Shown piece by piece: positions 33,951 to 38,684 of a stretch of DNA of 64,000 nucleotides. A model generated the notes under the pieces. It made no database searches. It was given only the letters and a program-made list of their open reading frames with translations, and was not told the DNA's origin. The stretch is from Alphaproteobacteria bacterium (GTDB taxonomy: Bacteria; Pseudomonadota; Alphaproteobacteria; GCA-2731375), in contig CBDDBZ010000022.1 of assembly GCA_965225945.1 (NCBI GenBank), positions 1-64,000 of the forward strand, read 5' to 3'. Each line of letters opens with the position of its first letter. Positions within the stretch are counted from its first letter, which is position 1. The position numbers and the translations under genes are program-made.

Positions 33951-34656
33951 GCCGCGGCGTCGGGTTCACGAGGTTCATCTCGAGCAGGATGATCGTTTCG
34001 TTCAACTGTTCGGCCTGCTCTTCCCCGAGGGACGAATCCTCGGCGAGCGCGTAACGTTCCGTCAGCGCGGCGGCGAGCGACCGCTGTCGGGCGACGGCGA
34101 AATCGATGACCTGCGCGCTTCGGACGAGTGCTCGCGCCCGCCCCCGATCACCCGCTTCCGCGTGCGCATGGGCCTGGAACAAAATGATGTTGGTGGCCAA
34201 TGTCGTCGATGCCTGGCGATCGCGCGCCAATTCATCCAGCGCCGCCGCCGCCTCGCGCGCGCGCCCTTCGGCGATCAGCGCCAACGGCCTGGCCGTTACG
34301 AAATACGCCCGAACATCCGCGAAGGGGCATGAACTTACCGCGTAGTCGAAACTCGCCAGCGCCTCCCGCACCCGACCGACTCGCAACCGTGCCATGGCCA
34401 GAATGTGCCTGGCAATCCAGTCGTCTCGGGTCTGGGATCGCAACGCCGCCGACATCAGCATGGCCTCGGCATCGCCGAGATTGCCCAGTTGGGCAAGGAG
34501 ATGCGCCCGCGCGGTCCGCGCCACGACATTGGCGGGGAAGCGTTTGTTAGCGGTGGTTCCAGGGTGCGCTTATATGGGCTCTTTTTGAGCGGTCGGTGGC
34601 GGTTGGCTGACGGGATGCTTTTGGGCTTGGCTGATTTTGTTTCGCGCTGTGGCTAT

Positions 34657-35553
34657 TCAGTCGAGGGGCCGGTCATCGATCTGGAGCGGTTCGCCGGCGC
34701 GGTCGCGCATGAGCATGTCGTTCCAGTCCAGGCCGTCGAGGGCAGGGCGCAGGCGGACGACCCTGCTGTCGTTTCGGATGAGCCGTGCCGCGGCGTCATC
34801 GCCCTGGCGGGTGGCGTCGTAGGCGCAGAAGATCCGGCCGGGGTTCCAGGCCTCGATCCATTCGGGGAGGCTTGCGGTGGCGCCGCCGGTTGAGACCACG
34901 GCGCATCCCTTGCGCCCGGCCGGGACGAGGTGGAGGGAGAGGACCGACAGGGCGTCGATTGCGTTCTTGGCGAGGATGACGGAGTTCGGCCAGTCGGGTT
35001 CCCACGACATCCAGAAGCCGCCGCGCGCGGCGGCGCCGGTCGGCGCGAGGCGGCGTGGCGCCGCGGCAGGGACGATCTCGGCGCCGAGAGCCTCGCCGGC
35101 CGCGTTTCGGCGGACGAACACGGCGTTGCCGTGGCGGTCGGCGTAGAGCAAGCCGAGGTCGCGGCACAGGGCGACGAGCACATCCGCGAGGCCGCGCTGC
35201 TCGACGAGGTAGCTCTGGATGGCGGGCCAGTGGCGGTCCGGGCACGGCGGCTTCGGGTGGCGATCGGCCGGGAACCGGTCACGGCACGGCAGTTCCGAGA
35301 AGAAGCCGAGGGCCTCGGGCACGGTGCACCGGCAGGCATGGATTACCAGGTCGATCGCTCCGCCCCCGCCCTCGCCGCGCAGATGTTCGTAGAACATAAA
35401 GCCGTTGATGCTGCCGACGGATCCGGGACGCCTCCAGCGCGCGGCATCGGTGGGATCGCGGCGGTAGCCGAGGCGGCGGACGACGTCTTCGAGGGGATAG
35501 CCTCGCAGGGCCTCGGCCCGCACCCGCCGGTCCCAGAGGCGGGGACCATCCAT
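34657..35553 (-). CDS. DUF3991/TOPRIM primase-like protein
   Basis: GGGGAIDLV, YL..RG, GLLYAD..NAVF, AIDALS, IFCAYD, DWND; resembles the C-terminal module of plasmid Mob/primase proteins. Confidence 0.8.
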   Translation of the reverse strand: MDGPRLWDRRVRAEALRGYPLEDVVRRLGYRRDPTDAARWRRPGSVGSINGFMFYEHLRGEGGGGAIDLVIHACRCTVPEALGFFSELPCRDRFPADRHPKPPCPDRHWPAIQSYLVEQRGLADVLVALCRDLGLLYADRHGNAVFVRRNAAGEALGAEIVPAAAPRRLAPTGAAARGGFWMSWEPDWPNSVILAKNAIDALSVLSLHLVPAGRKGCAVVSTGGATASLPEWIEAWNPGRIFCAYDATRQGDDAAARLIRNDSRVVRLRPALDGLDWNDMLMRDRAGEPLQIDDRPLD

Positions 35554-35555
35554 GG

Positions 35556-36344
35556 CTACGCCGGCGGCGGTTCCCCGCGGTCCTGCGCGCCGGCCTTGCC
35601 GGCTCGCCGCCGGCGGCGCTCGGCGCTGCGCTGCTTCTGGCGTTCCTCGGCCTCCTTGCGGCGCCAGGACTCGGCGTCGATGGCGATGATCTCGGCGTTG
35701 TGGACGAGGCGGTCGACCAGGGCGACGAGGCAGGCGGCGTTGGGGAAGGCCTCACCCCACTCGGCGAAGGGCCGGTTGGTGGTGATTATGGTGGAGTTCT
35801 GCTGGCTGCGGCTGGAGACGATGTTGAACAGCAGATCGGCATGGCGGTTGCTGTAGGACAGGTATCCGACCTCGTCGATCACCAGCAGGTGCTGGCGGGC
35901 GTAGAAGCGCAGCCTGCGCTGAAGCAGGGTGTCGCTGTCGAGGGCGGCGAGCTCGCCGAGCATGCTGGCCGCGGTGGCGAAGCGCACGGTGTGGCCCTCG
36001 AGGACGGCGCGGTGGGCGATATTGGCGGCGATGGTCGACTTGCCGACGCCGTTTGGGCCGACCAGGACGACGTTGGCGGCCTCGTTGAGGAACTCGAGGC
36101 TCATGAGATCCTCGACGGCCATGCGGTCGCAGCGGCGCGGCCATGCCCAGTCGAAGTCGGCGAGCGGCTTGAACTGTCCGAGGCGGGCGTCGGCGAGGCG
36201 GCGCTTGAGGCTGCGGCTTCGCCGTTCCTCCTCTTCCCAGGCGACCAGCGCAGCGGGCCAGTCATGCCCGGCGACCTCGCCCCAGTGGGCGGCGAGGCCG
36301 TGCAGGCCGAGCGCCCGGGCACGGCCCATGAGGGTATCGTTCAT
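35556..36344 (-). CDS. istB: IS21 helper ATPase IstB
   Basis: [28 protein letters not shown] overlap with istA. Confidence 0.93.
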
Positions 36345-37846
36345 TGCTCGCTGTCCTCCTCGGGTTCGCCGGCCAGCCCGTCGTATCCGACGAGGTCGTG
36401 ATCGCGGACAGTGATGTCGCGCACTCTCGGATCGCCGGGCAGTTCGACGGGGATGGGCGGGGGTTGGTGCCGCAGCTCGCGCCGCCGGGTCAGGCTCAGG
36501 CGCACGGCGTTGGGATGGGGAACGTCCCGCTTCAGGGCCTCGTCGATGGCCGCCTCGAGCTCGGCGGCGCCGTAGGCGTCGAGGAGGCGCAACAGGGCGG
36601 CGACGGTGGCGCCTATATAGCCGCCGCGCTGGGCGGCCTCGGCGAGCAGGCGCTCGCTGTTGGGCGCGGCCTGGACCAGCCGGTCCTGGCCGCGAAGGCG
36701 GCGGGCATGGCTCTTGCGCCTGACCAGCTCGGCGATGTGCTCGGGGTTCTCGATGCGGGCCGCCTTGTCGAAGCTGCGCGGATGGCTGGCGATGACGTCC
36801 ACACCGTCGAGGATGCGCACCTCGTCGAGCGTCGCGACCACGACGAGGGTGCGCCGCACATGGGTGTGCGGCACGCTGTAATCGTTGAGATCGAAGCGGG
36901 CGTAGGGGGTCTTGCCGATGGCGACCTCGACCCGGTCGTGGTCGGGGAAGGGATCGCCGGGCAGCGCGATGAGAGAGCCGCGTTCCCGCTCGAAGGCCTC
37001 GCGCACGGTGATCGAGCGGTCTTCGGGCCAGGGGCGGTCGGCGGCGATGCCGTGGCACCAGGCCAGGGCCTGGGCGTTGAGATCGTCGATATCGCGCCAC
37101 CGGCGGGCGGCGAAGAAGCTGGTCCGGACATAGCGAATCGCCCGCTCCACGCGCCCCTTCTCGTTGCCGCGCGCGACCGCGACGGGCTTGGGCAGGAAGT
37201 GGTAGTGGCCGGCGAGGTCGAGGATCCGGGGATTGAACCGGATGGCGGCGCCGCGGCGCTCCAGCACGACGCTCTTCAGGTTGTCGTACCAGAGCTCGCG
37301 GGGCACGCCCTGCCACGCCTCGAAGGCTTCGACATGGCCGCGCAGGAAGTTGCTCATCCCGGCGTCGAGGTAGAAGCGCAGGAAGATCCGCCGCGAGTAG
37401 CTGAGAACCATCACGAAGCCCATCAGGCGGCGCTCCGCGCGGCCGATCGTCACCTTGCCGAAGTGTCCCCAGTCGACCTGGGCCTGCTCGCCGGGAAGGG
37501 TCTTGAGGCGCAGATAGGCCTCGGCCACGGGCCTGGGCCTGAAGTGGCTGAGCAGATGACGGAAGTGGTCGCCGCCGCCCGGATAGCCGCGTTCGCGCAC
37601 CATCTGGTAGAGCCGGCTGGCGGGCAGCGTCGGCCAGGATGCCAGCGTCTCGGCGATGAACGGCACGTATGGATCGATCATCGACGGCCTGGGCGACCTC
37701 GCGTCCCGGGGCTCGCCGGCCGCGGTGAGGAGGCGCTCGACGGTGTAGCGATGCACGCCGAGCTGGCGTGTGATCGTGCCGACCGTCCACTTCTCGACGT
37801 GATACAGGCGCAGGATCTCCGCGCGGGTCTCCTTGTCGATGGTCAT
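36341..37846 (-). CDS. istA: IS21 transposase IstA
   Basis: [38 protein letters not shown]. Confidence 0.95.
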
Positions 37847-38283
37847 CTCACCCCCTTTCCCGTCGGGCGCAGCCCCGGATAGACCGCCTGCCCGCAGAAC
37901 CGGCCGCAGCGATCGCAGCGGAAGACCCTGGCGGGCCGCTCGTGCCCGAAGGGCCGTGTTCCGGGACGCCCTGCCGGCGTCCGCGCCACAACAGGACGCC
38001 GCCGCGCGGCGGTCAAAGGGTGATGCGTCACTTCCTGCCCGCGGCGCCGATTCACCGGCGTCCGGCGCCGCCGGCGTTCGCGATAGCGCCGCTGGCGCTC
38101 AGCATGCTTGTGACGGCCCCGCCGGCTGTTCTGGTAGCGCTGCCCGGCATGGCGCTGCGATCGCCGGCGCACCCGATCGCTGCAGCTCCGTGAACAGTAG
38201 ATGTTGCCGTGGTCGCAGTGCCGGCAGAGAACCACCTGTTGATGGCACGAGGCGCAGTTGAACAGGCGGGCGGTGTTCTTCAT
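37843..38283 (-). CDS. Cys-rich, Arg-rich putative Zn-finger protein
   Basis: CASC..CRHCD.GNIYC...[11 protein letters not shown]-terminal CDRCG..C; ATGA overlap with istA. Confidence 0.75.
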
Positions 38284-38684
38284 CGCGCAGCCGATGAGAA
38301 CGGGGTGGACCCACGCCCAAACCCGCACGATACTGCGCATATGGGTCGTGCCTTGCATGGCTCGGGGGGTGCGGTGCCGGTCGTTGCCAGCAAGCAAACG
38401 GGGCCGGCGCCGCATCGTTCTCAGCGGCCCGAGTGTACTCCCGCGGCTCCCCTTGTCAGGTCCGCGGAACCGCCGCCGCCAGCCAGCCAAAACAGGAATC
38501 GAGACGCCCGCCCGCGGTGGATAAGCAGCCCGCCGCCGCCAGACTCTTGGCGGTCGCCGCGGCGGGCTACTTACCCACCGCTGCGCCGAGCCAACTCCCG
38601 CCTGCAAACCACGCAGCTACAGCGCCACGATGCCCGATGTCGCTGAAATCACCATCTAAGCGCGGTTTTTCATCGCCACCGACA

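Follow-up and report, generated by a model that had tools for sequence, protein, structure and literature searches.

A four-gene IS21-family transposon in an alphaproteobacterial genome and the recurrence of its DnaG-like Toprim gene beside AAA+ ATPase genes

The IS21 family and the Mu/Tn7-type elements are the textbook DDE transposases steered by an AAA+ ATPase. IS21-family elements have terminal inverted repeats ending in TG/CA, generate a target duplication of variable length (4-8 bp), and are usually described as two open reading frames (ORFs) in roughly 1.8-2.6 kb. We know of no primase-like subunit of IS21 or Mu/Tn7-type transposons, and none was found in the literature. Here we analysed an element located in a 64,000-nucleotide stretch of the genome of an alphaproteobacterium (assembly GCA_965225945.1, contig CBDDBZ010000022.1, positions 1 to 64,000; hereafter the window), in which istA and istB lie between a gene for a Cys-rich, putative zinc-finger protein (ZnF) and a gene for a DnaG-like DUF3991-Toprim protein (Toprim). 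This four-gene element is real, active and recently multiplied as one unit. As judged from gene order in related sequences, its last gene belongs to a family that also ends three other AAA+-dependent transposon architectures in several phyla, with the catalytic residues kept.

The four-gene element and its copies

The principal features of the element in the window are as follows.

34545-38684, minus strand: whole IS21-family element, 4,140 bp in the window copy and 4,141 bp in most copies
37843-38283, minus strand: ZnF gene, 146-aa basic Cys-rich protein with the conserved start MKNTARLF
36341-37846, minus strand: istA, IS21-family DDE transposase, 501 aa (NF033546; Pfam Mu-transpos_C_2, HTH_23 and rve)
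35556-36344, minus strand: istB, AAA+ helper ATPase, 262 aa (PF01695, E 1e-53; NF038214)
34657-35553, minus strand: gene for the 298-aa DnaG-like DUF3991-Toprim protein, whose active site is degenerate (K196, D246-A-T248)
34545-34580: terminal inverted repeat at the Toprim end, imperfect, TGTTAGCGGTGG...GCGCTTATATGG
38649-38684: terminal inverted repeat at the ZnF end, reverse complement TGTCGGTGGCGA...GCGCTTAGATGG
34539-34544: target-site duplication AGCGTT, copy 1
38685-38690: target-site duplication AGCGTT, copy 2

The element is occupied by four genes on the minus strand, in the order ZnF, IstA, IstB and DUF3991-Toprim. ZnF overlaps IstA, and IstA overlaps IstB, by the 4 nt ATGA; a gap of 2 nt lies between IstB and Toprim. 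IstA scored 249 bits against the NCBIfam model of the IS21 transposase (NF033546, cut-off 160) and IstB 205 bits against that of the IS21 helper ATPase (NF038214, cut-off 200), and the IstA residues D125, D188 and E234 were invariant over 15 diverse IstA sequences. A preliminary description had reported a clean 4,140-bp insertion with TGT..ACA ends, a motif at position 22 of both ends and an AGCGTT duplication, and re-reading of the sequence confirmed every one of these features. The termini are TGT at 34545-34547 and ACA at 38682-38684, and one 12-nt motif, GCGCTTA[T/G]ATGG, is shared by both ends at positions 22-33 inward (34566-34577 and 38652-38663), where IS21 elements would have multiple IstA-binding repeats in their ends. 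As the window copy alone lacks one T after 34577, which is present in the other 18 copies of the host genome and in three public runs, the usual length of the element is 4,141 bp.

The element thus combined a DDE transposase, IstB just downstream of istA, TGT..ACA ends and short duplications of variable length. On the basis of the IstA and IstB family matches, the ends and the 5-7 bp duplications, we assign it with high confidence to the IS21 family, as the preliminary description did. It departs from that family only in gene number and size, and the presence of four coupled ORFs in 4.14 kb instead of two leaves the family of the transposase unaffected.

A search of the host genome (39 contigs, 6.27 Mb) gave 19 full-length copies with 99.3-100% identity, together with several fragments and 2 copies that other insertions had interrupted. 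Of the 19 full-length copies, 15 were flanked by perfect 5-7 bp duplications; three had none and one had an altered left tip, while one of the 15 was a duplicate of the flanks of another locus. Over the 17 sites examined, the duplications were 5 bp long at seven, 6 bp at five and 7 bp at two (14/17). These distinct flanks and duplications argue that the copies are separate insertions rather than assembly duplicates. All four ORFs were full-length in 14 of the 19 copies, and the other five carried one distinct single defect each; the Toprim ORF was full-length in 18. In public sponge-metagenome runs, moreover, contigs of both DNA and RNA libraries have break points precisely at 34545 and 38684/38688. 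Another genome contains a relative of 4,049 bp in no fewer than 13 complete copies; it has TGT..ACA ends and is flanked by 5-bp duplications, and the ends of the relative in locus L013 match as TGT...GCGC(T/C)TAT.

These copies bear on the earlier view that the ZnF and Toprim genes are integral to the element and not loosely acquired. Indeed, both genes are mobile with the element in the 19 host copies, and the same view is supported by the 13 or more complete copies of the 4,049-bp relative, by the recovery of the four-gene order in 17 loci of 6 assemblies (described below), and by a ratio of nonsynonymous to synonymous substitution rates (dN/dS) below 1 for all four genes.

No circle or tandem end junctions were found among the contigs of four public runs, a search that covered contigs only. 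The 14 sites compared gave no target-site consensus (GC 0.63 in the duplications vs 0.66 in the genome). Strict strand bias was not seen for the 10 copies on one chromosome of a metagenome-assembled genome (MAG), where the orientation switches four times, the origin and terminus of this chromosome being unmapped.

Several observations concern the copies themselves. Seven of the 19 copies share an in-frame deletion of 6 bp within the Gly run (GGGG) that lies in the Toprim N-domain (window 35367-35372), and single-nucleotide polymorphisms at 37985 and 38558 each divide the copies about half-and-half; the deletion and the two polymorphisms suggest sub-lineages among the copies. In the copy at C33:78699-82864, about 26 bp of inserted sequence near the 3' end of the ZnF gene joins the ZnF frame to that of IstA, giving an ORF of 655 aa. 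A further full four-gene copy, flanked by a CGTCT duplication, is located on the same contig some 25 kb further downstream, past the window end (C22:64122-68262). A 5'-truncated Toprim paralogue, 63% identical, occurs at C30:9340-10134 and C38:350-1144 within a 5.2-kb region that is duplicated and in which neither IstA nor IstB adjoins it; it is probably the relic of a related element.

Distribution of the ZnF and Toprim genes

The preliminary description had proposed to score how often homologues of IstA have a ZnF gene upstream and a Toprim gene downstream, and counted close homologues without Toprim, or with unrelated cargo in its place, against its own proposal. A metagenome survey was seeded with IstA, without reference to Toprim, and retained 80 loci with 57-68% IstA identity. 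Of these, 75 had enough sequence to judge the upstream side, and in 73 of them the ZnF gene lay just before IstA. None of the 65 loci with at least 300 bp downstream of IstB, and none of the 23 with at least 900 bp, carried a Toprim gene after IstB, and a 70-aa ORF like that found on two plasmids followed IstB in 48 of 73 loci. The ZnF gene was also found upstream of istA on two named plasmids, where it is absent from the gene table shown, and in one sampled genome. Because of its position upstream of IstA in 73 of the 75 testable loci, ZnF is, as far as gene order indicates, a core gene of a wide IS21 subgroup and not particular to the four-gene element. This apparently unannotated gene family is relevant to the annotation of IS elements.

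The Toprim gene was then used as the seed of a scan of one genome per species, and of the 276 relatives returned, the 80 best loci were sorted into classes; they came from 51 assemblies. The order ZnF-IstA-IstB-Toprim was present in 17 of these 80 loci, from 6 assemblies, with IstA identities of 75-81%, and five more loci of the window's clade were cut or decayed. Every complete element of this clade, in the 6 other assemblies, contained the Toprim gene. The comparison of the two surveys showed the gene to be lineage-specific, apparently added at the place where relatives carry the 70-aa ORF.

A second class among the 80 loci, with 25 loci in 13 assemblies, had the order DUF6431, TniA-like, TniB-like and Toprim. 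Its TniA-like transposase contains rve, HTH_32 and Mu-transpos_C domains, the ATPase is of the AAA_22/TniB-like type, and the upstream protein is a Cys-rich DUF6431 protein. These TniAB-type units are 4.0-4.3 kb long and multi-copy, with TGT..ACA ends and 5-bp duplications, and neither a resolvase nor a TnsA-like gene was found in the units examined. We take Tn552 and Tn5053 to be their nearest models. Three of them, at L045:3857-8163, L040:3798-8136 and L061:3743-8064, are multi-copy 4.3-kb units with TGTTG..CAACA ends and 5-bp duplications.

In 4 loci the transposase was of a third type, accompanied by an AAA_22 ATPase and by a spacer of 1.1 kb. Distant IstA-IstB-Toprim arrangements, with 25-30% IstA identity, made up 13 loci, and in one further locus only IstB was present before the contig end. 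Upstream of these genes, where the sequence allows, Cys-rich and ParB/KorB-like proteins are encoded. Five-gene units of this kind (Cys-rich, ParB/KorB-like, IstA, IstB and Toprim, with intact catalytic motifs) were seen at L089:462-5056 and L087:114-4781 and in L075, L084 and L077; their hosts are Acidobacteriota, Verrucomicrobiota, Planctomycetota and one gammaproteobacterium. In five cyanobacterial loci the module forms the C-terminal part of large proteins (353 aa to over 2,500 aa), and in the one locus examined the fusion adjoins a relaxase-like ORF.

Across all types, an AAA+ gene was located directly upstream of Toprim on the same strand in 66 of the 80 loci, and most of the remaining 14 were either too short to judge or cyanobacterial fusions. 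In two MAGs (L035:1833-5032 and L068:180-3363), the Toprim gene stands tail-to-tail with an IstB-IstA pair on the opposite strand, which may be another arrangement or a chance adjacency. The family was also detected in 61 plasmid records, with matches that never reached 60% identity and were mostly located within MobV relaxase genes, in agreement with the previous statement that DUF3991-Toprim modules normally occur on plasmid Mob/primase proteins; the best-ranked plasmid homologues were 27-32% identical. A search of a library clustered at 50% identity with the Toprim profile matched 313 clusters at E<=1e-30, a number that rose to 4,288 at E<=0.001.

These surveys upheld only in part the earlier proposal that the element represents a distinct transposon class. 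Against it, the nearest IstA relatives (57-68%) lack Toprim, 48 of 73 carry the unrelated 70-aa ORF instead, and ZnF is common to a wide IS21 subgroup; in its favour, the Toprim family appears at the end of three other AAA+-dependent architectures. The significance of the gene lies in this recurrence: in four separate architectures the ATPase gene is immediately followed by a DnaG-like gene. The elements concerned are multi-copy and evidently active, come from 51 assemblies and several phyla, and provide a testable lead on how AAA+-guided elements handle replication, target choice or repair.

The origin of the gene in the window's clade was approached with a quick maximum-likelihood tree of the Toprim sequences. 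The window's clade was monophyletic, had a stem of 0.75 and was nested among sequences of the TniAB type, and the distant IS21-linked clade was sister to the cyanobacterial fusions. In an approximately unbiased (AU) test, the union of the two IS21-linked Toprim clades was not rejected (p 0.081, for a group named after the tree had been seen). Capture of Toprim from a TniAB-type element by a module swap is accordingly the favoured origin on the basis of the tree, not an established one.

The Toprim protein and its possible role

The Toprim protein exceeded the Pfam cut-offs for both Toprim_2 (22.8 bits, cut-off 22.1) and DUF3991 (36.6 bits, cut-off 24.5). Its AlphaFold model (pLDDT 76, pTM 0.70) was compared with the PDB by Foldseek, and the top matches were DnaG primases at E 8e-6 to 1e-4, namely the zinc-binding and RNA-polymerase domains of the Aquifex enzyme (ZBD+RPD, 2au3) and the E. 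coli cores (1eqn and 1dde); T7 gp4 and Twinkle were also matched. The model therefore has the Toprim fold together with the N-terminal RNA-polymerase subdomain of a DnaG-type primase. A profile search with the Toprim alignment returned no match among PDB sequences at E up to 10. Matches to PHROG were weak DNA-primase matches, PADLOC assigned no defence family to the ZnF or Toprim of the window, and the clusters matched in the protein atlas were DUF3991/Toprim clusters, mostly from Bacillota, which serve as leads only.

Activity of DnaG requires a Glu and both Asp residues. Relatives of the Toprim protein have the motifs ESA(I/V)DA(L/I)S and D-A-D..GD.AA, and the window protein has AKNAIDALS and D-A-T..GD at these places. 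The catalytic Glu was found in none of the 13 sequences of the window's clade (Lys196 in the window) and in 42 of 46 sequences of other types; the DxD motif was intact in none of the 13 and in all 45 of the other sequences covering it. The window protein thus lacks the conserved Glu and DxD ligands of DnaG-type primases. It also has no CHC2 zinc site, since no Cys occurs in residues 1-73. A helicase-binding domain is likewise absent, as nothing follows the Toprim fold in the model, which stops at residue 298.

Because all 13 sequences of the clade have other residues in place of both the catalytic Glu and the second Asp, the window protein (with Lys196 for Glu and D246-A-T248 for DxD) is unlikely, by sequence comparison, to be the working primase suggested earlier. 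If it were a working transposon primase, it would prime single-stranded DNA with RNA in a replicative or copy-out intermediate, with no need for the host primosome. The DnaG fold with its ZBD-like N-domain, the weak PHROG matches, the fusion of relatives to plasmid MobV relaxases, where priming is the expected job, the intact Glu (42/46) and DxD (45/45) of the other transposon types, and the lack of a resolvase or TnsA-like gene in the units examined of those types are all consistent with such an activity. For the window's clade it is nevertheless improbable: the Glu and second Asp are gone, the zinc site and helicase-binding domain are missing, and the element has been highly active in two genomes despite the degenerate site.

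Another enzymatic explanation is that Toprim serves as a second-strand nuclease, cutting those 5' strands that are not transferred, the task of TnsA in Tn7, and thereby giving cut-and-paste transposition. Toprim domains act as nucleases in OLD-family proteins (PMC8649781).

The Toprim-bearing TniA/TniB-type elements, with 5-bp duplications and no resolvase, would fit such a role. The fold matches, however, are DnaG primases, with no OLD-family nuclease among the matches listed, and the metal ligands are lost in the window's clade, so that we regard a nuclease as very improbable.

The constraint on the gene was evaluated from dN/dS, which was 0.16-0.39 for IstB, 0.27-0.41 for IstA, 0.30-0.50 for ZnF and 0.51-0.68 for Toprim. 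The Toprim value was below 1 in 10 of 10 pairs, Toprim genes of the other element types gave 0.18-0.56, and the Toprim domain is 67% identical within the window's clade. These data bear on the explanation that Toprim is a dispensable passenger, a decaying hitch-hiker acquired from another element that serves neither transposition nor the host. Such a history would account for the absence of the gene from IstA relatives at 57-68% identity (0/65), the loss of the catalytic residues, the highest dN/dS of the four genes, the long stem branch (0.75), the in-frame 6-bp deletion in 7 of 19 copies, and the truncated 63%-identical remnant elsewhere in the genome. It sits poorly with a Toprim ORF that is full-length in 18 of 19 host copies and in all 17 four-gene loci of the 6 other assemblies, lies 2 nt from IstB, and evolves at dN/dS below 1 in every pair; moreover, the same gene position in unrelated backbones makes chance capture hard to invoke. 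We consider a passenger rather unlikely.

Taken as a whole, the data lean somewhat towards an active IS21 element that has grown from a two-gene into a four-gene transposition operon, in which roles can be proposed for all four products. IstA and IstB would perform cleavage, strand transfer and target capture as in IS21, as expected from their family membership. ZnF, a basic zinc-ribbon protein translationally coupled to IstA, may be a DNA-binding cofactor or regulator acting at the ends or at the promoter. Toprim would be the non-catalytic remnant of a transposon-borne DnaG-like enzyme, kept for contacts with DNA or with a partner, and might modulate an ATPase-controlled step such as target choice, immunity, or hand-over to host replication or repair. 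The loss of the metal-binding Glu and Asp from a gene that is nonetheless kept suggests action without catalysis, and on this ground we tentatively propose that Toprim is a non-catalytic, DNA- or partner-binding accessory subunit of the ATPase-controlled step. Prediction of an IstB-Toprim complex gave a score of 0.01 (mark 0.32), which is no answer for or against.

Several points weigh against the four-gene operon reading. The roles of ZnF and Toprim are inferred from sequence, and Lys196 and Thr248 were assigned to catalytic positions by motif alignment and the Pfam Toprim match. Canonical IS21 works without Toprim; together with its absence from the nearest relatives in the IstA-seeded survey and its dN/dS, the highest of the four genes, this dispensability leaves some probability to the passenger. 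The retention of catalytic residues in the other transposon types implies that the original role of the family was enzymatic, which would limit the non-catalytic reading to the window's clade. One 4,171-nt contig from an RNA library covers the entire element, for which DNA carry-over is possible.

A broader and slightly more speculative proposal is that this DnaG-derived family is a dedicated extra subunit of ATPase-guided DDE transposons with either IS21-type or Mu/Tn552/Tn5053-type cores. Its intact forms would be primases encoded by the transposon that prime its own copying or tie insertion to replication forks, and the window's clade would have arisen from them later, as a non-catalytic form retained for its contacts. 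If this is true, the intact forms define a new kind of self-priming DDE transposon in which small Cys-rich proteins are a second recurrent partner. The window's clade provides a natural, catalytically dead comparison for the intact Toprim forms.

The ZnF gene, the insertion site and comparison with known systems

The ZnF protein has six N-terminal Cys residues (CxxC-x6-CxxC-x6-CxxxC), the motifs RYQ..GR.KHA.RQRRYR and KVTHH, and a C-terminal CxxCxxxC; its structure model shows a zinc ribbon with a very basic helical hairpin. A 254-aa ORF from TTG at 38607 is an upstream extension of the ZnF frame that is closed by stops in other elements. None of 218 homologues was named or had a Pfam domain, no family match was obtained in NCBIfam, PADLOC or PHROG, and the protein atlas gave matches to unnamed clusters only. 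A fold search of the PDB returned nothing at E 0.001 or better (top match YacG, E 0.78). The alignment of ZnF with the type-D Cys-rich protein by hhalign brought the expected motif together, but was weak (probability 1.6%, E 0.031).

The features upstream of the ZnF start and the gene interrupted by the element are as follows.

38514-38581, minus strand: hairpin with 26-nt arms, 88% complementary, between the end and the promoter-like site
38432-38459, minus strand: sigma-70-like promoter CTGACA-16-TACACT upstream of ZnF, consensus match only
38284-38431, minus strand: ZnF leader, about 150 nt, nearly invariant in the seven elements compared
33937-34544, minus strand: 3' part of a TPR-repeat gene split by the insertion
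38685-40300, minus strand: 5' part of the same TPR-repeat gene

One promoter-like site was found where 0.3 were expected; of the seven aligned elements, six retain its CTGACA and all seven retain TA.ACT. The near-invariance of the leader stands against a coding divergence of 20-35% among the same seven elements. Of its predicted hairpins, one pairs GTTCTCATCG with CGATGAAGAAC, which holds the ZnF start codon, and a translational control of ZnF by this start-codon-occluding hairpin is possible in the model. As only 1 of 45 predicted pairs had a compensatory change, the structure of the leader is unproven. Rfam gave no match above threshold; the hairpin at 38514-38581, which is partly conserved in relatives, obtained only a sub-threshold match to a generic hairpin.

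In-silico excision of the element with one AGCGTT gave an open TPR-repeat frame across the joint (...LDATIERFPANVVARTARAHLL...). A separate frame shift in the interrupted gene, between ORFs 38567-40300 and 38656-39171 (window 38650-39200), reflects either a pseudogene or a long-read indel. The host genome is heavily loaded with IS elements, among them a second, unrelated IS21-family element at window 19492-21712 with roughly 45 copies, whose IstA and IstB are about 31% and 35% identical to those of the four-gene element.

Full-text searching of the literature found no description of the four-gene architecture, the entries of ISfinder and TnCentral being outside the scope of that search. Among known systems, the element resembles IS21 (istA and istB) in its IstA/IstB family matches, the ATGA overlap, the TGT..ACA ends and the 5-7 bp duplications, and differs from it in having four coupled genes in 4.14 kb. 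The elements with the order ZnF-IstA-IstB-orf70 on plasmid 1 of Aromatoleum aromaticum EbN1 (NC_006823) and on pALIDE02 of Alicycliphilus denitrificans (NC_014911) are similar in IstA (63% identity), IstB (62%) and the upstream Cys-rich ORF (47% over the Cys region); unlike the window element, they carry the 70-aa hypothetical protein WP_004359146 after IstB in the place of Toprim. On the EbN1 plasmid, a CRISPR-like array with the repeat TTCAACCCCCGCGATGCGCGGGGAACAC was noticed about 150 bp after the IS21 relative (L091:5560-5800).

The TniA/TniB-type modules (Mu, Tn552, Tn5053 and Tn7-like) share with the window element a Cys-rich protein, a DDE transposase with a Mu C-domain, an AAA+ ATPase and DUF3991-Toprim, but belong to other transposase and ATPase families, make 5-bp duplications, and keep the Toprim Glu and DxD. 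DnaG primases are matched by the window Toprim in fold (2au3, 1eqn and 1dde); in contrast to them, the window protein is encoded by a transposon and lacks the catalytic Glu, the second Asp, the CHC2 site and the helicase-binding domain. The plasmid MobV relaxase-primase fusions contain a related Toprim family, with 27-32% identity in the best-ranked sequences. Set beside these systems, the element itself is IS21 with two added genes, and it is the recurrent Toprim partner of AAA+-guided transposons that merits attention.

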